Of a DNA stretch of 64,000 bases, positions 10,892 through 46,652 are shown piece by piece. This DNA is from Patescibacteria group bacterium (GTDB lineage Bacteria > Patescibacteriota > Patescibacteriia > JAHJFT01). The notes under the pieces are model-generated. The model was not told the origin of the DNA and searched no databases. It saw only the letters and a program-made list of their open reading frames with translations. The stretch is taken from assembly GCA_028710985.1 (NCBI GenBank), contig JAQTTB010000001.1, forward strand, positions 231,397 through 295,396. Direction: 5' to 3'. Position 1 is the first letter of the stretch; each line of letters begins with the position of its first letter. The translations under genes and the position numbers were made by a program.

Positions 10892-11019
10892 CTCGCCACC
10901 TCCTAAAAAAAGACCTGCTAAAAATTTAGCTGATTTCCCCGTCCTTGTCAAGCACCCCCAATCATGTTAAACTCTGTTTTAATCATTAAAAATTTATCAT
11001 TTAAAATTGAATTAAAATT

Positions 11020-11039
11020 CCTGCCTGCCGGCAGGCAGG
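11020..11039. repeat. 20-bp perfect palindrome CCTGCCTGCCGGCAGGCAGG (copy 1 of 4)
   Basis: Exact copies lie at 22348-22367 and 60981-61000, and a variant at 47295-47315. All are intergenic or at gene 3' ends. Confidence 0.85.
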
Positions 11040-11068: not shown

Positions 11069-11129
11069 GGAGGAGTGGCCGACCCCGCGCAGCGGGGCCC
11101 TGCTTCGCGGGGGTGGCTGAAAGCGCCGC
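11069..11129 (+). pseudogene. degenerate tRNA-Ser 5' fragment (nt 1-14 plus a D-loop/anticodon-stem remnant) interrupted by a 32-bp GC hairpin
   Basis: GGAGGAGTGGCCGA is identical to the first 14 nt of the intact tRNA-Ser at 11387. GGCTGAAAGCGCCGC differs by 2 nt from GGTTGAAGGCGCCGC. The insertion ccccgcgcagcggggccctgcttcgcgggggt lies between them. Confidence 0.5.
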
Positions 11130-11139
11130 AATTATAAAA

Positions 11140-11385
11140 ATGTTCACAACCTATATCTTAAAAAGTTTAAAAAATGGTAAACATTACATTGGGCATACTA
11201 ATGATATGCCGGCGCGATTAGAACGGCATAACCAGGGAAGGGTTAAGTCAACAAAAAATGGACGCCCCTGGGAATTAATTTATTCAGAAATATTTAAAAC
11301 AAAATCGGAAGCTAATCGTCGGGAATTTGAAATAAAGAGTTATAAAGGCGGGATATTATTTAAAAAACTTTTCAAACTCATTTAA
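11140..11385 (+). CDS. GIY-YIG nuclease family protein (UPF0213-like)
   Basis: YILKSLKNGKHYIGHTNDMPARLERHNQG...KSEANRREFEIKSYKGG carries the GIY-YIG core with conserved Arg/Glu/Asn residues. The ORF ends 1 nt before the tRNA-Ser. Confidence 0.85.
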   Translation: MFTTYILKSLKNGKHYIGHTNDMPARLERHNQGRVKSTKNGRPWELIYSEIFKTKSEANRREFEIKSYKGGILFKKLFKLI

Positions 11386-11386
11386 C

Positions 11387-11476
11387 GGAGGAGTGGCCGA
11401 GTGGTTGAAGGCGCCGCTCTCGAAAAGCGGTATGCCCGAAAGGGTATCGTGAGTTCAAATCTCACCTCCTCCGCCA
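11387..11476 (+). tRNA. tRNA-Ser (anticodon CGA), long variable arm, CCA encoded
   Basis: GGAGGAG-TG-GCC-GAGTGGTTGAA-GGC-G-CCGCT-CTCGAAA-AGCGG-(18-nt variable arm)-GTGAG-TTCAAAT-CTCAC-CTCCTCC-G-CCA. Confidence 0.9.
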
Positions 11477-11487
11477 ACCAAAATATT

Positions 11488-11931
11488 ATGCAAATTTCAA
11501 AAAATGATGTCCAATACAATATATTGAATGAAGAATTTTTGCTTGCACAGCGGCAAATGGACAAATACGACCAGCTTTCAACTACCATTAAAACCTGGGC
11601 AGTTACGCTGTGGGTAGCCGCGTCCGGCTGGGTGTTCCAAACGGAAACGAAACAGGTCGCCCTCTTAGGAGCGCTGCTAGTACTCATCTTCTGGTTCTTT
11701 GACAGCTACAATAAAGTTTATCGTACCAACTACAAGAAACGCCGTGACGAAATCCAAAATGGCTTACAAATTCTTTTTTTCGGCCGTCCCTTACCCACGG
11801 ATTTTTTATCCCCCAACCTTCCGATTCATGACGAAAAAAATGTCGTTCGAAGCATGTTTCTTCTACACGTTGGATTGCCTTACGCAATACTTATCATCAT
11901 TTCACTTCTGATCTATGCTAATTTCAATTAA
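11488..11931 (+). CDS. small hypothetical membrane protein (3 predicted TM helices)
   Basis: The start is placed at MQISKNDV, just after the tRNA. The ORF-track version (11401) overlaps the tRNA. It is bounded by copies of the tRNA-Ser 3' end. Confidence 0.45.
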   Translation: MQISKNDVQYNILNEEFLLAQRQMDKYDQLSTTIKTWAVTLWVAASGWVFQTETKQVALLGALLVLIFWFFDSYNKVYRTNYKKRRDEIQNGLQILFFGRPLPTDFLSPNLPIHDEKNVVRSMFLLHVGLPYAILIIISLLIYANFN

Positions 11932-11954: not shown

Positions 11955-12033
11955 TCACCTCCTCCGCCAACCAAAATATTCAAAATTTTAAGTCGACGTA
12001 GCGGAGCGAAGTCGCTCTCACCTCCTCCGCCAA
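11955..12033 (+). repeat. two extra copies of the tRNA-Ser 3' end plus flank (att-like direct repeats)
   Basis: TCACCTCCTCCGCCAACCAAAATATT at 11955-11980 equals 11462-11487 (tRNA 3' end + CCA + 11 nt flank). A shorter copy, TCACCTCCTCCGCCAA, lies at 12018-12033. Confidence 0.75.
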
Positions 12034-12167: not shown

Positions 12168-12365
12168 ATGCCTACAATCAGTAAAAACATTCGCAAATTA
12201 AGAGAACAAAAAGGTATATCGCAAGATAGGCTTTCAAAACTGGCAAATATCTCTTTGAATACAATCGCAAAACTGGAACTCGACGAAACTCAAAATCCAA
12301 CCATTGAAACTTTGCAGAAAATTGCAAAAGCCCTAGATGTCAAAGTTGAGGATTTAATAAAATAA
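12168..12365 (+). CDS. XRE-family helix-turn-helix transcriptional regulator
   Basis: A 65-aa protein, IRKLREQKGISQDRLSKLANISLNTIAKLE, with a classic Cro/C1-type HTH. Confidence 0.75.
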   Translation: MPTISKNIRKLREQKGISQDRLSKLANISLNTIAKLELDETQNPTIETLQKIAKALDVKVEDLIK

Positions 12366-12369
12366 ATTT

Positions 12370-13488
12370 ATGGCCAGAGAAGCATCAATTAAAAATCTTA
12401 CAAATGCGAAAAGGGCAAAGAACGATGAGTTTTATACTCAGTACATCGATATTCAGAAAGAAATTGAAAAGTATTTAGATTACAACCCTAATACATTCCG
12501 AGCTAAGGTGGTGTATTGCAACTGCGACGATCCGTTCGAGAGCAATTTTTTTCGTTATTTTGTACTCAATTTCAACAAGCTTGGATTGCAACAGCTAATT
12601 ACAACGAGCTACAAACCATCGCCCGTCGCCAACACGCAACTGGGATTATTCGGTGATGACAAAACACTTGCAAAAACAAAAGGCCGTTCAAAGGTAACTG
12701 CCAATAAATTTATTATCAATGAAGTGAAAGATATAGACGGCGATGGAGAGTTCAATCTAAAAGATGTTGCCAAACAGTTAAAGGCAAACAAAAACAACGA
12801 ATGGATGCCCCTTGAGAAAGATGGTGACTTCAGAAGTCCCGAATGCATAGCATTACTGGAACAGTCTGATATCGCGGTAACCAATCCGCCGTTTAGTTTG
12901 TTTCGTGAGTATGTTAAACAACTTTTTGATTACCAAAAAAAGTTTTTGATTATTGGCAATATTAATTGCATAACTTACAAGGAGGTATTTCAAAAAATTA
13001 AAAATAATGAAATATGGCTTGGTAATGGAATGGGAAGATGGATTTCTGGTTTTATTGTACCTGAATCCTACAACTTGTACGGAACGGAGGCTCGGATAGA
13101 TGAAGATGGAAATAGAATTGTTGCCACCAATAATTGTTTGTGGCTTACCAATCTTGACCATGGTCGCCGTCACCAACCGTTGCCACTTATGACAATGAAA
13201 GAAAATTTGAAATACAGCAGACACAAAGAAATCAAAGGCAAAAAAGCGTATGAAAAATACGATAATTATGATGCGATAGAAGTATCTTTTACCGATGCGA
13301 TTCCAAGCGATTATAAAGGTGCAATGGGTGTGCCAATAAGTTTTTTGGATAAGTACAATCCTGAACAATTTGAGATATTAGGAATGGACGATCACAGGAT
13401 GCAATATCCTAATTGGAGAGGCAGAGGCCCTGACTTGAATGGAAAGCCCGCTTATAGAAGAGTTATCATCAGGCATAAGAAAAAATAA
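12370..13488 (+). CDS. N6-adenine DNA methyltransferase (NPPF motif IV; tentatively EcoRI-methylase-like family)
   Basis: DIAVTNPPF is the (D/N)PP(F/Y) catalytic motif. The N-terminal NDEFYTQ and [15 protein letters not shown] resemble the M.EcoRI family, but I am recalling this from memory and have not verified it. Confidence 0.75.
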
Positions 13489-13489
13489 T

Positions 13490-14659
13490 ATGAATACAAC
13501 TTTAAAAACCAATATCACTGTTAAAGAAATCTGCGACGGCTTTGTCTATAACGAACTTGAAGGCAAGGGTTTGTTTGGCTTGTCTGGCAAGCTCACTATT
13601 CAGCCGGAATATCAGCGAAATTATATTTATGCATCCGATGGCGGCAAAAGAGAGATGGCTGTAATTGAATCAGTCCTAAAAGAATATCCAATAGGATTGA
13701 TTTATTTCAATAAAGTTTCTACCGAAAACCTAGAAGTTTTAGACGGACAGCAACGCATCACAAGTCTCGGACGATTTATCACCGACAAATTTGCCATCAA
13801 GGACGAAAATGGCATGGAGCAATATTTTGGCGGTATGGCAAAAGACAAGCAAACCAAAATTTTGGAAACGAAACTTCTCATTTACGAGTGCGAGGGCACA
13901 GAAAGCCAGATAAAAGAATGGTTTAGGACCATAAATATTGCCGGCGTTCCGCTCAATAATCAAGAATTACTCAATGCCGTGTATTCTGGCCCATTCGTGA
14001 CTAGGGCTAAAGAGGAATTCAGTAATAGCCAAAACGCCAATATTCAAAAATGGAGTGCATATGTATCGGGTAGTGCAAACAGGCAGGAATTTTTGGAATG
14101 TGCTCTTGATTGGGTAAGCAGAGGCAATATCGGCGACTACATGAGCAAGCATCGCAAAGACAAAAACATCGATGTGTTGAAAAAATATTTCAACACAGTC
14201 ATTCATTGGGTATCTAGCGTATTTACCGATGTAGAAAGCGAAATGCGCGGGCTTAAATGGGGACGATTGTACGAGGAATATCACAAAGAGAAATATAATC
14301 CAACCAAAGTATCCGCTGAGGTGCGTGAGCTCTATGGTGACTTTTTTGTTAAAGATAAAAAGGGAATTTTTGAGTACATTTTAGGTGGTAAAAACGATAC
14401 AAAATTGCTTAATATTCACATTTTTGACGAACCAACTAAAAGAGCTATTTACGCAAAACAAACTAAGGAAGCTGAAACCAAAGAGAAATCAAACTGTCCA
14501 CATTGCGCTATTGGGCACGACGCTAATAAGGAAAAGATTTGGAGTTTCGGCGAAATGGAAGCGGATCATGTATCAGCGTGGAGCAAGAGTGGCGCGACTT
14601 CAGCGAAGAATTGTGAGATGTTGTGCAAAACCCACAATCGAGCGAAGGGAAATCGATAA
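13490..14659 (+). CDS. DUF262 (ParB-like, DGQQR) N-terminal domain fused to a C-terminal HNH (DUF1524-like) nuclease; GmrSD/SspE-like architecture
   Basis: [17 protein letters not shown] is the DUF262 signature. The C-terminus (CPHCAIGHD...[32 protein letters not shown]) is an HNH motif. The start is set at MNTTLK, 2 nt after the MTase stop. Confidence 0.8.
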
Positions 14660-14665
14660 AATAAT

Positions 14666-14860
14666 ATGGCAAATCAAACAGACAATAAAATAATGAGTGT
14701 GCCAGAGCAAATATTCGACCAGTTTCTAACGGAATTGGGAGAACAAAAAATACCGGAAGAAGTTATCGCTCGCTTAAGAAAAACTCTTGTAGACAATGGG
14801 CAGATCTCGGTTGATGCTCTCAAACAAGCATTGTTTTACAGTGATAGCACAGATGTATGA
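14666..14860 (+). CDS. small hypothetical protein (64 aa), translationally coupled to the downstream ATPase
   Basis: Its stop overlaps the ATG of the next gene (ATGA at 14857-14860). It is acidic with no known domain. Confidence 0.4.
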   Translation: MANQTDNKIMSVPEQIFDQFLTELGEQKIPEEVIARLRKTLVDNGQISVDALKQALFYSDSTDV

Positions 14861-17331
14861 TTAAGATTGACACAATAAAAATTGAAGAGTTTCGTGGCAT
14901 ACGCAACTTGACACTGGAGTTTAACGGAAAAAATTACGCTGTATGCGGACCAAACGGAACAGGTAAAAGTGGAGTGGTCGATGCTCTAGAGTTTGCTCTT
15001 ACAGGGAATATATCGCGCTTGTCTGGCGAAGGTATGGGTAATGTTTCCGTCAAAGAACACGCACCACATGTCGATAGTAAAAATAATCCCGAAAAAGCTC
15101 GCATAAACATTACATTTAAAATACCAACACTTGAAAATAAGCAAGTGACGCTCGCGAGGACAGTCAAAAATTCTACAACGCCAAGTATAAATCCATCATC
15201 ACCGGAAATACTTGAGATACTTTCACAATTTGATGGGCATCCTGAGTTTGTATTATCTCGACGCGAGATTATTCGGTATGTCATTTCAAAACCGGGCGAC
15301 AGATCAGCGGAAGTTCAGGCACTATTGCGTCTCGATAAAATTGGCGATTTACGGAGCAGTCTACTGACCATATCAAACACATACAGCAAAGAGTCAAAGG
15401 ATTCAAAAAAAGTTCAGGATCAAGCAAGCGAAAGTTTAGCACAAGGTTTGGAAATAACTGATTTGGTTAAAGCAAAGATTTTAGAAGCGGTAAATACAAG
15501 ACGCACTGTTCTCGGCTTAACGTCACTTACGGATTTAACAGCCACGACAGCTTTAAATGATGGATTAGAAACAAGTGTAAAATCTCCGGCTGTGCCGAAA
15601 GTGAATAAGGTTTCGGCAACAGCTGATCTAAAGACTTGGCGAGAGGTATCGCAAAAAATGACGGCTGAAAGTGTGCGGTCGGAGTGTTCAGAGTTGAAAG
15701 ATCAATTAACTGTTTTGAGTAGTAATCCTATTGTTACTGAGAGTGTAACGCGCGAGAAATTTTTACGCTCGGCGATAGATTTTGTAACGGAAGAAGCTTG
15801 TCCCGTTTGTGATACAAAATGGGACATATCTACATTGCAGGGTATTATCCGCTCGAAACTTGAAGGATTTGAAGAAATCACAAAGATGCGCGCTAGCCTT
15901 GAAAATCGGTTGGAACCAATTATAACTCTTGTCGACTCGCTTGATAACGCAACCGCTTTAGCTGAAAAATTAACGAAAGTCTTGACAACTGAACATACGG
16001 CAGGTCTTGCAGCTTATCGAGCAACATTATCGTCATACCGCAAGGCATTGAAAGATTTTTTGCCATTGACGGAAGCTATACCAGCAATTGTAAATATCAC
16101 AGAAATTCCTGCTGACGTAACATCTGCAATTGAAGCGATAGAAAAAGCTGTCGCAATTATTCCAGAGCCAACACAACAAGATGCGGCACGAGATTTTATT
16201 GTGCGAGCACAAGATCGCCTTGAGGCATACAGAAAAGTAGCTCGCGAAGCAGATAAGGCAAAGCAGCGGGCTGATTTATCAAAGAAGGTTTACGACACAT
16301 ATGTAGATATCAGCACCAAAGCGTTGGAGGGTGTTTATAAAGATGTAGAAGGCGAGTTCTCTAAACTGTATCGCTCGGTGAACGGCGAAGACGAGAATAG
16401 TTTTACAGCAAAGCTGGTTCCGTCTATTGGCAAATTAGGTTTTGATGTTGATTTTTATGGACGAGGGCATTTCCCTCCTGGCGCGTATCACAGTGAGGGA
16501 CACCAAGACGCGATGGGGCTTTGTTTGTATCTAGCACTAATGAGAAAACTCCAAGGCACTAATTTCAGATTTGCCGTACTCGACGATGTGCTCATGTCTG
16601 TTGATTCGAATCACCGCCGAGAAGTGTGTAATCTTCTTAAGCAACAATTTCAAGACACTCAATTTATCCTTACAACGCATGATGAAGTATGGTTAAAACA
16701 AATGACGACTGTTGGGCTTATCGCATCAGGAAACGCAACACGCTTTAGCAATTGGACTCCCGACCATGGTCCTGCGGAATGGAAAACGCGCGACGTGTGG
16801 ACTGAAATAGACACTGCTTTGAATGCAAACGATGTTCAATCAGCGGCCAGTCGCCTTCGGTATTATCTGGAGTATGTTTTTAGAGAAGTATGTGACAGCT
16901 TGCGAGCACAAGTTGAGTTTAAGGGTGATGGACGCTATGGGCTTGGGGATACCCTAGCTCCGGCCGTGGCACGCTTTCGTAAGCTTATGGTTGAAGGTAA
17001 AGAGGTTGCGGAATCACGGAGCCAAACTGATGTTGCAAAAGCTCTCCAATTGCAAGAAAAGAACCTTGCAGATTCTTTAGTCGCGACCAACGCTGAACAA
17101 TGGCAGGTTAATCCGGCTATTCACTATAACGAATGGGCGAATCTTTCGGTTAATGATTTTAATCCCGTGGTTGCTACTTTTCGTAATTTGGTGCAAAAAT
17201 TCTTTTGTGAAAAGCCAGAGTGTAGTAGTTTTGTATATTTAACTACGACGCCACCAAAAACGCCGGATGCAGTTCGCTGTAATTGTGGATTGATAAATAT
17301 AAACCTAAAGAAACCGGCGCAGAAAGATTAA
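14857..17331 (+). CDS. SMC/Rad50-like ABC ATPase (AAA_15/AAA_23-type head, long coiled coil, putative CxxC zinc hook)
   Basis: The N-terminal Walker A is GPNGTGKSGVVDALEFAL. The C-terminal Walker B and D-loop are FAVLDDVLMSVD and ILTTHDE. About 450 aa of predicted coiled coil lie between them, carrying CPVCDTKW near the middle. A C-terminal Cys cluster (CEKPECSS...VRCNCG) follows. Confidence 0.8.
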   Translation: MIKIDTIKIEEFRGIRNLTLEFNGKNYAVCGPNGTGKSGVVDALEFALTGNISRLSGEGMGNVSVKEHAPHVDSKNNPEKARINITFKIPTLENKQVTLARTVKNSTTPSINPSSPEILEILSQFDGHPEFVLSRREIIRYVISKPGDRSAEVQALLRLDKIGDLRSSLLTISNTYSKESKDSKKVQDQASESLAQGLEITDLVKAKILEAVNTRRTVLGLTSLTDLTATTALNDGLETSVKSPAVPKVNKVSATADLKTWREVSQKMTAESVRSECSELKDQLTVLSSNPIVTESVTREKFLRSAIDFVTEEACPVCDTKWDISTLQGIIRSKLEGFEEITKMRASLENRLEPIITLVDSLDNATALAEKLTKVLTTEHTAGLAAYRATLSSYRKALKDFLPLTEAIPAIVNITEIPADVTSAIEAIEKAVAIIPEPTQQDAARDFIVRAQDRLEAYRKVAREADKAKQRADLSKKVYDTYVDISTKALEGVYKDVEGEFSKLYRSVNGEDENSFTAKLVPSIGKLGFDVDFYGRGHFPPGAYHSEGHQDAMGLCLYLALMRKLQGTNFRFAVLDDVLMSVDSNHRREVCNLLKQQFQDTQFILTTHDEVWLKQMTTVGLIASGNATRFSNWTPDHGPAEWKTRDVWTEIDTALNANDVQSAASRLRYYLEYVFREVCDSLRAQVEFKGDGRYGLGDTLAPAVARFRKLMVEGKEVAESRSQTDVAKALQLQEKNLADSLVATNAEQWQVNPAIHYNEWANLSVNDFNPVVATFRNLVQKFFCEKPECSSFVYLTTTPPKTPDAVRCNCGLININLKKPAQKD

Positions 17332-42758: not shown

Positions 42759-42830
42759 TGCCCCCGAGAGGAATTGAACCTCTATTTAGAGCTTAGGAGT
42801 CTCCCGTTCTATCCGTTGAACTACAGGGGC
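42759..42830 (-). tRNA. tRNA-Arg (anticodon CCT)
   Basis: The minus-strand read is GCCCCTG-TA-GTTC-AACGGATA-GAAC-G-GGAGA-CTCCTAA-GCTCT-AAAT-AGAGG-TTCAATT-CCTCT-CGGGGGC-A. There is one A-G mismatch at the base of the anticodon stem. Confidence 0.6.
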
Positions 42831-42839
42831 ATGATTCAA

Positions 42840-43070
42840 CTATCGCCTTGACAATCTTTTTACTTTTCTTTTTTTAATAAACCTTTCTCTGCGATAGGCC
42901 TCTTCAATACTATCAAATTCTTCGATTCTGGCAATCTTCCATGGCTTAAATGCCGAAGTATATCGGGATAATCCATTATTATGCTGAGCCAATCTTCTTT
43001 TTATATTATTTGTAACTCCAACATAATAACTGCCATTTTTTAAACTTTCTAGAATATATAGAAAATGCAT
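42840..43070 (-). CDS. GIY-YIG nuclease family protein (UPF0213-like)
   Basis: MHFLYILESLKNGSYYVGVTNNIKRRLAQHNNG...EEAYRRERFIKK. The ORF ends 9 nt before the tRNA-Arg(CCT) 5' end, on the same strand. Confidence 0.8.
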   Translation of the reverse strand: MHFLYILESLKNGSYYVGVTNNIKRRLAQHNNGLSRYTSAFKPWKIARIEEFDSIEEAYRRERFIKKRKVKRLSRR

Positions 43071-43083
43071 CTTTAAAATATTA

Positions 43084-43190
43084 GAAGACCTCTATTGTAT
43101 CCATTGAATCCCGACGTTCCGCCGCAGGCGGAAGTCGGGATCCCGACCCCCCGACCCCGCGGGCGTCGGGGCGTCGGGACTACAGGGGCG
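43084..43190 (-). pseudogene. degenerate tRNA-Arg 5' fragment (GCCCCTGTAGT ... TTCAATGGATA ... CTTCTAA) split by a ~70-bp GC hairpin insertion, immediately upstream of the GIY-YIG start
   Basis: The minus-strand read is CGCCCCTGTAGT-[cccgacgcc...gtcggga hairpins]-TTCAATGGATACAATAGAGGTCTTCTAATATTTTAAAG-ATG(GIY-YIG). This is the same layout as at 11069-11140. Confidence 0.45.
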
Positions 43191-43228
43191 AAAAAACGCT
43201 CTAAATATAGCACAAAATTAATACACTG

Positions 43229-44179
43229 TCAATCATCGCGCCGCTGTTTTCCGTGGAATGCCTGATGGACCTCGCGGAGCTGCTTATTCGTGATATGGGT
43301 ATATATCTGCGTCGTGGTGATTGACGAATGCCCGAGCATTGACTGCACCGAACGGATGTCCGCTCCGTTCATCAAGAGATCCGTGGCGAACGAATGGCGC
43401 AGAGTATGCGGCGATACATGCTTGGTAATGCCGGCGGCTTTGCTGTAGCGCTCAATCAGTCGCTGGATGCTCCGCGGCGTGAGCCGCGCGTCTTTTTCGG
43501 ACGCGGCCGCTGCGCCCTTGGCCCGGTCGTGACGCACAAAAAACGCCGGATGCGCGTCATTTCGTTTTTTCAGATATTCATGGAGCCAAAATTTCGCCTG
43601 ATTGGATAAAAACACCACGCGCGTCTTTGAACCCTTGCCGCGAACCGTGAATTCATCGCGGTCAAGATTCACGTCTTCAATATCCAGGCCCACGAGCTCG
43701 GAAACGCGCATGCCGGTTGAAAATAAAAGTTCAAGAATGGCGCGGTCGCGTTTGGCGATGATCTCCGGCTGTTTTAATTTCTGCGGCTGCTCAATCAGGC
43801 GGTCCAAATCTCCGCCTTCCAAAAAATCAACCTGCCGGTCCGGCATTTTCGCGAGCTCAATCTTTTCCGCCGGCATGGTCTTGATGTCCCGCTTGGCCAG
43901 ATACTTGAGCCAGGCGCGGAGCGCGATGAGATGATAATTCTGCGTTGATTTGGAAAGCGGCTGTTTAAATTTGTCTTCCATCCGGTTGAGATAAAGCCGG
44001 AAATCGCGCACCCGGTCGGCGGTGATCTCCTCGGGCTTGGCGATCTTGGCCCAATCCAAAAATCTCTGAAGATAAAATTCGTAATTCGCCCGCGTCCGCC
44101 GGCTCCGGCCTTTTTCAATTTCAAGATAATCAAGAAAATCACCAAGCAGCTGCTGAATTTTTGTTGTCGGCTTTGCCAT
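43229..44179 (-). CDS. tyrosine recombinase, XerC/XerD family (could also be an integrase for the adjacent tRNA-linked repeats)
   Basis: The N-terminal core-binding domain is followed by C-terminal HTLRHSFATDLLMNGADIRSVQSMLGHSSITTTQIYTH, which carries the R...HxxR...Y catalytic motifs. Confidence 0.85.
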   Translation of the reverse strand: MAKPTTKIQQLLGDFLDYLEIEKGRSRRTRANYEFYLQRFLDWAKIAKPEEITADRVRDFRLYLNRMEDKFKQPLSKSTQNYHLIALRAWLKYLAKRDIKTMPAEKIELAKMPDRQVDFLEGGDLDRLIEQPQKLKQPEIIAKRDRAILELLFSTGMRVSELVGLDIEDVNLDRDEFTVRGKGSKTRVVFLSNQAKFWLHEYLKKRNDAHPAFFVRHDRAKGAAAASEKDARLTPRSIQRLIERYSKAAGITKHVSPHTLRHSFATDLLMNGADIRSVQSMLGHSSITTTQIYTHITNKQLREVHQAFHGKQRRDD

Positions 44180-45583: not shown

Positions 45584-45689
45584 ACCCACCACAAAAACCT
45601 ACCTCGCCCCGACCACTGCTCTGCATTGGCCGGGGTTCTTCATATATTACGGTAAGAGATCCCTCGCCCCCGCACTGCGGGGGACTCGG

Positions 45690-45727
45690 GATGAAATCAG
45701 GCGTCGTTGCGCCTGATTTCATTTTAC
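45690..45727 (+). terminator. rho-independent terminator
   Basis: gatGAAATCAGGCGtcgttgCGCCTGATTTCatttt. It is preceded by a cccccgcactgcggggg hairpin. Confidence 0.6.
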
Positions 45728-46621: not shown

Positions 46622-46652
46622 AAAGGCCCCGAATTGTCGGGGCTTTTGTTTT
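46622..46652 (+). terminator. rho-independent terminator after rpsO
   Basis: aaaGGCCCCGaattgtCGGGGCttttgtttt. Confidence 0.75.

Follow-up and report, generated by a model that had tools for sequence, protein, structure and literature searches.

A probable selfish cassette of a GIY-YIG nuclease gene and GC-rich hairpins in the tRNA genes of a Patescibacteria group bacterium

The Ssn family (SsnA/NTS; CDD cd10448) comprises single-domain GIY-YIG nucleases that act on single-stranded DNA (ssDNA) and have cognate hairpin repeats (Chenal et al. 2025, PMC11893778). These proteins of about 94 amino acids (aa) bind their hairpin (NTS, core TTCCCGCG..GCGGGAA) on ssDNA only and cut a few nucleotides (nt) upstream of it, and hairpins are found near 71% of Ssn genes (PMC11893778). 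[quoted passage not shown] Here we analyze a stretch of 64,000 nt from a Patescibacteria group bacterium (hereafter the window) in which a GIY-YIG nuclease gene and a GC-rich double hairpin stand between a 5' fragment of a tRNA-Ser gene and the intact tRNA-Ser gene (locus 1). The same plan is found on the other strand at a tRNA-Arg gene (locus 2). Our favored reading, to which we give a probability of about 0.6, is that locus 1 is a small selfish cassette that interrupts the chromosomal gene for tRNA-Ser(CGA) behind nt 14, in the D-loop, and likely encodes an Ssn-type nuclease. Such a cassette would be mobile or once-mobile, would target tRNA genes and regenerate the tRNA, and would use the promoter of its host gene.

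Integrative elements that target tRNA genes encode a tyrosine integrase and duplicate the 3' part of the tRNA. Among GIY-YIG enzymes, the homing endonuclease SegB of phage T4 has the conserved T-psi-C motif in tRNA genes as its recognition site and propagates segB along with neighboring tRNA genes (PMC2330249), and in phage T6 it drives the tandem amplification of units made of tRNA genes and segB (PMC13096335). Fungal mitochondria harbor mobile open reading frames (mORFs) that come with a replacement gene terminus, in atp6 of Allomyces and in atp6, atp9, cox2 and nad3 of Glomus (PMC3630166). There is no mention of tRNA in the Ssn paper (PMC11893778), of tRNA-gene adjacency in the GIY-YIG phylogenomic survey or of GIY-YIG in the study of Patescibacteria tRNA introns (PMC13011429). 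In the literature on GIY-YIG with tRNA fragments, CPR (candidate phyla radiation) bacteria or COG2827 we found no description of the present architecture, and no follow-ups of the Ssn work were found.

Anatomy of the tRNA-Ser and tRNA-Arg loci

Locus 1 is made up of the following parts, in order.

10945-10973, plus strand: candidate native tRNA-Ser promoter, TTGTCA-17-TAAACT with a TG extension (promoter scan; putative)
11069-11082, plus strand: resident tRNA-Ser 5' fragment, nt 1-14, exact copy
11083-11113, plus strand: GC-rich double hairpin, 31 nt, 87% GC, CCCCGCGCAGCGGGG + CCCTGCTTCGCGGGGG, left end of the cassette
11114-11129, plus strand: tRNA-like remnant, nt 16-31, 14/16 identical, collinear with the cassette of a related locus (L088)
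11140-11385, plus strand: GIY-YIG nuclease gene, 81 aa, single-domain, Ssn-like, 32.5% GC (PF01541, E 7e-17)
11387-11476, plus strand: intact tRNA-Ser(CGA), native-type body (ARAGORN and Rfam)

The chance of finding an exact copy of tRNA-Ser nt 1-14 in a 400-nt stretch is about 1.5e-6, and over the whole window the fragment has a BLAST E value of 0.016. The tRNA-like remnant behind the hairpins stops within the 5' strand of the anticodon stem, 10 nt before the ATG of the nuclease gene (11140), and at the other end of the gene a single nucleotide separates the stop codon (ending at 11385) from tRNA-Ser(CGA). The box TTGTCAAGC in the candidate promoter region is common to the orthologous loci of related genomes described below, and a 'ttgtcaagc' box also stands 5' of tRNA-Ser in two of these that lack the cassette (L089 and L091).

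The order of parts at locus 2 follows the same plan.

43204-43232, minus strand: native tRNA-Arg promoter, TTGACA-17-TATATT, directly 5' of the fragment, overlapping the xer stop codon and also present in related loci L083 and L086
43179-43189, minus strand: resident tRNA-Arg(CCT) 5' fragment, nt 1-11
43109-43178, minus strand: GC-rich double hairpin, 70 nt, 80% GC, homologous to the L086 hairpins
43081-43108, minus strand: degenerate remnant resembling tRNA-Arg (about nt 12-38; anticodon loop of the TCT type)
42840-43070, minus strand: GIY-YIG nuclease gene, 76 aa, 31% GC (Pfam, E 3e-18)
42759-42830, minus strand: intact tRNA-Arg(CCT), 9 nt past the ORF stop (Rfam)

A preliminary description of this DNA had reported fragment, remnant, nuclease ORF and intact tRNA at locus 1 and the same layout at tRNA-Arg-CCT on the other strand, and all of these parts are indeed present at both places. 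The locus 1 layout stands as it was given, with small corrections of size: the insert measures 31 nt instead of 32, the spacer before the gene 10 nt instead of 11 and the ORF 81 aa instead of 82.

The two nuclease genes are the only GIY-YIG genes within the window, and their products are 45% identical. In both, the GIY-YIG domain (PF01541) spans nearly the whole protein; Pfam, the homologue alignment and the AlphaFold2 (AF2) model reveal no DNA-binding module and no residues past the catalytic domain. Residues Y5, Y16, R26, H30, N31 and E62 are invariant in the homologue alignment, which also fixes the ATG start of the 81-aa ORF. The AF2 model of the 81-aa protein has the GIY-YIG fold (mean predicted local distance difference test score, pLDDT, 89.5), in agreement with a fold search of the PDB. 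A catalytic domain without a DNA-binding domain fits a classical homing endonuclease less well than it fits the Ssn type, and the enzyme therefore probably acts on ssDNA and is guided by hairpins. With 7,932 cluster representatives at E <= 1e-10, the family is a large one. Many of its database members (proteins P0245-P0390) are 100-130 aa long with the domain starting at residue 20-50; these N-terminal extensions, like that of a 90-aa GTG-start ORF at 11113-11385, probably reflect starts mis-called inside hairpins or the tRNA fragment. In composition, the nuclease ORFs have 31-33% GC against 50% for the window, and the hairpins 80-87%.

Recurrence in other genomes, empty sites and further tRNA-associated features

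A locus scan with one genome per species, using a narrower alignment of homologues (A2) as query, returned 80 loci. A co-oriented tRNA gene lies at most 400 bp from the nuclease gene in 66 of them (60 within 150 bp) and an anti-oriented one in none; most of the 14 loci with no near tRNA are cut by contig ends. In 39 loci the nuclease gene precedes the tRNA (GIY-to-tRNA order), mostly in CPR genomes and with tRNA-Ser or tRNA-Tyr. The reverse order (tRNA-to-GIY) is found in 27 loci from Bacteroidota, Ignavibacteria, Desulfobacterota, Omnitrophota and others, where the tRNA is tRNA-Leu, Ala, Pro or Asn. Across the ORF from the tRNA, most loci have a partial copy of this tRNA, and control flanks of about 5 kb gave almost no matches. 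At the related loci, a self-fragment of at least 11 nt was found within 500 bp of 69/89 GIY-adjacent tRNAs versus 8/23 non-adjacent tRNAs, so that the fragment similarity noticed in the preliminary description is far above chance. Because the carriers include complete chromosomes and cultured isolates, the pattern is not an assembly artefact.

At the loci with GIY-to-tRNA order, the tRNA copy is broken at a few fixed positions and a GC-rich double hairpin stands at each of them. The hairpin follows tRNA nt 14, in the D-loop, at about 15 loci including locus 1, and nt 11 at 5 loci or more including locus 2. In a sister subclass of at least 12 loci from other genomes it lies between anticodon positions 34 and 35. 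The anticodon region had been proposed as the target in the window, which does not hold: the window junctions are in the D-loop and D-stem (nt 14 and nt 11), and position 34/35 belongs to the sister subclass. In the tRNA-to-GIY class, a downstream pseudo-tRNA has a TCCCGA..TCGGGA hairpin in place of the anticodon arm, and its T arm is often also swapped for a CCCGA..TCGGG hairpin. Pseudo-tRNAs 3' of the ORF in L041, L056, L058, L063, L071, L074 and L080 keep a cloverleaf-like order, with GC hairpins replacing the anticodon arm and often the T arm. Where hairpins are present at both cassette ends (L012, L042 and L088), they are in direct orientation.

An alignment of 24 elements (A3) folds into two helices with 90.9% of cells paired. 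The second helix shows compensatory changes (UA<->CG 13:11, and GC<->CG) that follow the insertion site and not the identity of the tRNA, and the covariation score was matched by 0 of 500 shuffles. Folded as DNA, the locus 2 double hairpin reaches -37.6 kcal/mol (z = -5.5). The locus 1 leader is not significantly more stable than its shuffles (z = -1.1), and support for the hairpin there therefore rests on conservation and covariation. Judged by these two properties, the GC hairpin is a conserved end of the element and not damage to a decaying remnant, and the locus 1 double hairpin is the probable recognition element of the nuclease.

Orthologues of locus 2 were found through homologues of the neighboring tyrosine recombinase (Xer; 72-80% identity), whose gene (44179-43229) lies upstream of the locus 2 fragment and ends about 40 nt from it. 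Relatives share the order xer, tRNA-Arg(CCT), tRNA-Arg(TCT), Band_7, tRNA-His. In L083, a clean empty site, TTGACA-17-TATATT is directly followed by tRNA-Arg(CCT) and then by tRNA-Arg(TCT), with no fragment, hairpin or nuclease gene. The promoter conserved between L083 and the window stands in the latter directly 5' of the 11-nt fragment and not of the intact tRNA. Hence the fragment is the 5' end of the resident gene, which stayed where it was, and both the nuclease gene and the intact tRNA lie downstream of the native promoter. A related cassette occupies the same tRNA-Arg gene in L086, with its hairpins after nt 38 and its nuclease gene frameshifted. In L081 and L085 there is no nuclease gene, and orphan hairpins accompany tRNA fragments.

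Orthologues of locus 1 were found through relatives of the upstream O-antigen-ligase-like gene, whose synteny with tRNA-Ser(CGA) is conserved. In L089, L090 and L091 the site is empty and the promoter lies directly before the tRNA. L088 has a cassette collinear with that of the window (76% nt identity over 412 nt) with a frameshifted nuclease gene. Its upstream fragment (GGAGGAGTGGCCGA) and a downstream 3' remnant (AATCTCACCTCCTCCGCCA), the latter lying between a second double hairpin on its 5' side and the native downstream gene on its 3' side, are parts of a single resident tRNA (ends GGAGGAG.../...CTCCTCC). The complete tRNA-Ser inside the cassette differs from it in acceptor stem (GGTGGGG/CCCCACC) and variable arm; the L088 fragment is homologous to the window fragment and, unlike this cargo tRNA, has a resident-type acceptor stem. 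Similarly, in L012 a resident 5' half (...GGCTTG) and 3' half (GAAAGCC...), split at 34/35, surround a hairpin, the ORF, a foreign tRNA and a hairpin. Foreign tRNAs between resident parts in L088 and L012 imply that a cassette is able to bring along a complete tRNA. The variable arm and T stem of the window's tRNA-Ser(CGA) resemble those of the empty-site orthologue L089 and of the L088 resident 3' remnant, and this native-type body therefore fits regeneration rather than wholesale replacement. These comparisons also show that nuclease genes decay and that hairpins and fragments persist.

The comparison with relatives suggested in the preliminary description thus defines the empty sites (L083, L089/L090/L091) and the filled ones (L086, L088). 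Together with the 66/80 homologous loci beside a tRNA, this insertion polymorphism largely bears out its proposal of a selfish GIY-YIG cassette that recurs at tRNA genes, and the idea that a full tRNA is carried or regenerated agrees with the native-type tRNA of the window and the whole cargo tRNAs of L088 and L012. It had also suggested that a decaying 5' half is left behind. This is right insofar as the resident 5' end remains by the native promoter, but the hairpin, taken as damage, is the conserved end of the element. Hitch-hiking on tRNA promoters, offered there as an alternative, is better seen as part of the same picture, because a separate promoter would not fit in between the nuclease gene and the tRNA.

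Two further tRNA-Ser repeats lie 3' of locus 1.

11955-11980, plus strand: repeat of the tRNA-Ser 3' end (nt 76-90) and 11 nt of 3' flank, direct repeat of 11462-11487
12016-12032, plus strand: second repeat of the tRNA-Ser 3' end (nt 74-90)

The first of them may be what is left of the resident 3' end, or else an att site belonging to another insertion. Between the 26-nt direct repeats (11462-11487 and 11955-11980), each composed of the tRNA-Ser 3' end and 11 nt of flank, lies a 147-aa ORF (11488-11931) that encodes a predicted membrane protein with no Pfam match; the stretch looks like a separate small insertion at the tRNA-Ser 3' end, and the orthologous loci have another downstream gene. 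Further 3' of tRNA-Ser is a low-GC (40%) island (12168-17331), probably a defence island integrated at the tRNA, with genes for an XRE-type helix-turn-helix (HTH) protein, an EcoRI-like adenine methyltransferase, a GmrSD_N/HNH nuclease and an SMC/AAA ATPase. A REP-like palindrome, CCTGCCTGCCGGCAGG(CAGG), has four intergenic copies in the window (at 11020, 22348, 47295 and 60981), the one at 11020 sitting between the conserved promoter box and the tRNA-Ser fragment.

Next to locus 2 on the minus strand is a tRNA-Arg(TCT) array (42741-42516) with no nuclease gene. It starts with a 5' half copy (nt 7-35, 42741-42713), followed by cccgcctgccatggcctgt and an intact tRNA (42693-42622), and ends with two extra 3' halves (nt 36-end, 42603-42566 and 42548-42516), each after gaggcactggcgggcagg, which is approximately the reverse complement of the first array spacer cccgcctgccatggcctgt. 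The array junction of 'ccttc' with cccgcctgccatg is also found in L085. We considered a split-tRNA (Nanoarchaeum-like) reading of the tRNA-Arg(TCT) halves and set it aside because an intact gene lies between them and these same junctions bear the hairpins found at other loci. Just 3' of the array, on the same strand, is an orphan double hairpin (TGCGCCAGAGGCGCA + TCCGCCTCGGGCGGA, 42491-42462) of the same type as the T-loop hairpins of L081 and L088. The tRNA-His region (41624-41341, minus strand) has two GC hairpins (41432-41409 and 41405-41385) about 120 nt after the tRNA, and past these a repeat of the tRNA 3' end from the T-loop with a terminator (41377-41341), that is, a hairpin-plus-fragment scar with no nuclease gene. 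GC hairpins of similar style, CCCCCGCACTGCGGGGG and GCCCCGAATTGTCGGGGC, lie at 45600-45725 and 46626-46643, intergenic and with no adjoining tRNA.

Proposed mechanism and alternative explanations

From these patterns we infer the following course of events for the cassette. The short tRNA-like remnant would have been carried from an earlier target, and the right end of the cassette would be a tRNA 5' segment that rejoins the resident gene, giving a complete tRNA 1 nt past the ORF. The native promoter, kept with resident nt 1-14, would give a single transcript that comprises the fragment, the hairpins, the nuclease mRNA and the tRNA, and RNase P would cut the tRNA free. The nuclease would most likely bind its cognate hairpin on ssDNA exposed by transcription, replication or DNA uptake and nick nearby; the nick would start recombination or repair with tRNA sequence as homology, by which the cassette would be copied or amplified at empty tRNA genes. 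Insertion would be tolerated because the tRNA stays functional or is replaced by the cargo copy. Later the nuclease gene would decay, and orphan hairpins and tRNA fragments would stay. The same nick-driven recombination or repair could give rise to tandem arrays. Such arrays were seen at two loci, a tandem duplication of a unit of nuclease ORF and hairpin-bearing pseudo-tRNA in L039 (2906-3700) and arrays of hairpin plus tRNA-Tyr 3' half in L042 (60-760), and both resemble segmental amplification of the SegB type.

Several points weigh against this reading. The SRM motif published for Ssn hairpins (HGTCWYN(0-2)YYVSBRHN(0-5)WNVSBRGN(0-2)RNCYNB) has 0 matches in the window and none within 300 bp of the gene at any of the 80 loci (0/80), and because of this mismatch membership of the Ssn family is likely rather than certain. 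The closest solved relatives of the nuclease are UPF0213 BH0048 (E 1e-14) and SLX1. A hydrolytic nuclease cannot itself join DNA and so does not account for the chemistry of insertion, and, for recombination mediated by RecA, arms of homology 11-14 nt long are short. The window tRNA is of native type, which is compatible both with nt 1-14 brought by the cassette and with their local duplication. In a simple homing model the intact tRNA by the ORF would still be a target. Finally, the locus 1 and L088 cassettes may share descent instead of being independent events at locus 1.

The alternative that survives best, although we hold it to be unlikely, is a domesticated host function, in which nuclease and hairpins are kept at tRNA loci, for instance to restrict recombination or transformation or to block integrative elements, and the tRNA fragments are by-products of hairpin-induced slippage or repair instead of footprints of mobility. 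The role of SsnA/NTS in N. meningitidis and its proposed domestication (PMC11893778) speak for it. tRNA genes are also hot spots for island integration, with one island just 3' of tRNA-Ser here, and the junction of 'ccttc' with 'cccgcctgcca' is kept between the window and L085 despite 75% Xer identity. Domestication fits poorly, however, with the patchy occurrence among close relatives, the frameshifted nuclease genes of L086 and L088 and the strong AT shift of the ORFs. It also leaves the foreign cargo tRNA between resident halves in L088 and L012 without a place, as well as the fact that the same tRNA gene is struck at different sites in related lineages (behind nt 11 for the window cassette and behind nt 38 for that of L086).

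Somewhat less probable again is classical double-strand homing as in T4 SegB, whereby the duplex tRNA gene of cassette-free chromosomes is cut and repair copies ORF and tRNA, the hairpins merely destroying the target site in the leftover copy. SegB is a precedent for a tRNA-gene target with co-spread (PMC2330249), its tandem amplification (PMC13096335) resembles the L039 and L042 arrays, and presence/absence polymorphism at a conserved target is also seen (L083 and L089-L091 empty versus window, L086 and L088 filled). Yet the protein is the catalytic domain alone (76-81 aa) with no DNA-binding module, the intact tRNA by the ORF would stay a target here too, and the hairpins, which are conserved, covary and share one orientation at the two cassette ends, suggest a process that is strand-specific and guided by hairpins. 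Moreover, phage and plasmid collections and IMG/VR yielded no real relatives, just weak YazA/UPF0213-like matches, and a phage vector is therefore not supported.

Very little weight is left for the remnant of a tyrosine-integrase element at a tRNA gene with the locus 2 Xer-like recombinase as its agent. The recombinase gene does end about 40 nt upstream of the locus 2 fragment, and the tRNA 3'-end repeats past tRNA-Ser look like att sites. But it is a syntenic housekeeping gene also found at the empty L083 and in L081 and L085, so that an integrase-borne islet is excluded; in addition, the tRNA 5' part and not the 3' part is duplicated, locus 1 lacks a recombinase, and what is common to the 66/80 loci is the nuclease and not an integrase. 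A group I intron, or its remnant, with a homing endonuclease ORF is the least credible reading: such introns are frequent in Patescibacteria tRNA genes (PMC13011429) and the protein has a weak match to the group I intron endonuclease family TIGR01453 (E 5e-4, below cutoff; NCBIfam), but it is excluded because an Rfam scan of the whole window finds four tRNAs only, with no intron or other RNA family, and the downstream tRNA is uninterrupted; in the study of these introns, most tRNA introns have no endonuclease genes and GIY-YIG is not mentioned (PMC13011429).

Beyond locus 1, we tentatively put forward, as a joint proposal somewhat less probable than not, that Ssn-type single-domain GIY-YIG nucleases and their hairpins are autonomous mobile elements specialized on tRNA genes. 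They would act on single-stranded tDNA and place hairpins into, or instead of, the D, anticodon or T arms, and would avoid being selected against because they bring a substitute tRNA half or an entire tRNA. With the resident copy destroyed, the host would depend on the cassette tRNA, and tRNA genes would be moved between lineages (CPR bacteria, Bacteroidota, Ignavibacteriota, Desulfobacterota, Omnitrophota and others). If true, this would supply the missing biological role of the Ssn family outside Neisseria.

The role of this large single-domain GIY-YIG family has been stated as open outside Neisseria, and the present loci provide direct comparative evidence for insertion behavior: nuclease-hairpin modules behave as insertions with a defined target, the loops of tRNA genes. 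With empty and filled sites named, the hypothesis of mobility can be tested, and the system is well suited to decide whether modules of the Ssn type are mobile elements. The design suggests a way for a selfish element to reside in a tRNA gene of a reduced genome and spare its host, the tRNA being regenerated or replaced and the promoter borrowed, and through it tRNA genes could be replaced horizontally. In annotations of CPR and Bacteroidota genomes, it would also account for tRNA pseudo-fragments and for over-long ORF calls that start in hairpins. There is practical interest, too, in hairpin-guided ssDNA nucleases with new specificities.

Comparison with described systems

With IS200/IS605 and REP/RAYT elements, in which hairpins guide transposition of single strands (cited in PMC11893778), the cassette shares a small nuclease gene with short GC-rich hairpins on one strand, and non-autonomous hairpin copies that persist without the gene. 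The HUH/Y1 transposases of those elements form covalent intermediates, however, which a GIY-YIG hydrolase cannot. To our knowledge, neither tRNA-loop targeting nor regeneration of the target occurs among them. Like the integrative elements that target tRNA genes, the cassette is inserted within a tRNA gene, carries the displaced tRNA segment, leaves the gene intact and is flanked by a direct repeat, but the tRNA 5' part is duplicated here (the 3' half in the tRNA-to-GIY class), the cassette has no recombinase and the insert is about 320 bp.

SegB is similar in that a GIY-YIG gene adjoins tRNA genes, the target lies in conserved tRNA-gene sequence, nuclease and tRNA are inherited together and units of tRNA and nuclease are amplified in tandem, in a nuclease-dependent manner in the case of SegB. 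It differs in its size (about 220 aa) and DNA-binding part, in cutting duplex DNA and in being phage-borne, and it has no hairpin elements and does not split or regenerate the tRNA gene. The fungal mORFs come close in design: an endonuclease ORF lies in an essential gene, brings a substitute part that can be foreign (compare L088 and L012) and leaves the native part as an unexpressed duplicate. Their targets, however, are protein-coding genes of organelles and it is the 3' terminus that is replaced, and the enzymes are full-length LAGLIDADG or GIY-YIG proteins with no hairpin defined in the unit (PMC3630166).

The Ssn modules differ from the cassette in that their hairpins number in the hundreds across the genome, whereas the hairpins here are few, local to tRNA loci and at fixed sites inside tRNA gene copies, the module being bounded by tRNA fragments. 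Both have a GIY-YIG-only protein of similar size (81 and 76 aa here, roughly 80-100 aa in Ssn), with matching spacing of the catalytic Tyr/Tyr/Glu residues (Y5, Y16 and E62 here; Y6, Y17 and E64 in SsnA), and short GC-rich hairpins around the gene that are directional and in direct orientation. Of the hairpin, only the palindromic core resembles NTS: TCCCGCG-loop-CGCGGGA (also TCCCGCG.AGCGGGA) here is nearly the NTS core. On these features, the cassette nuclease is likely a member of the Ssn family.

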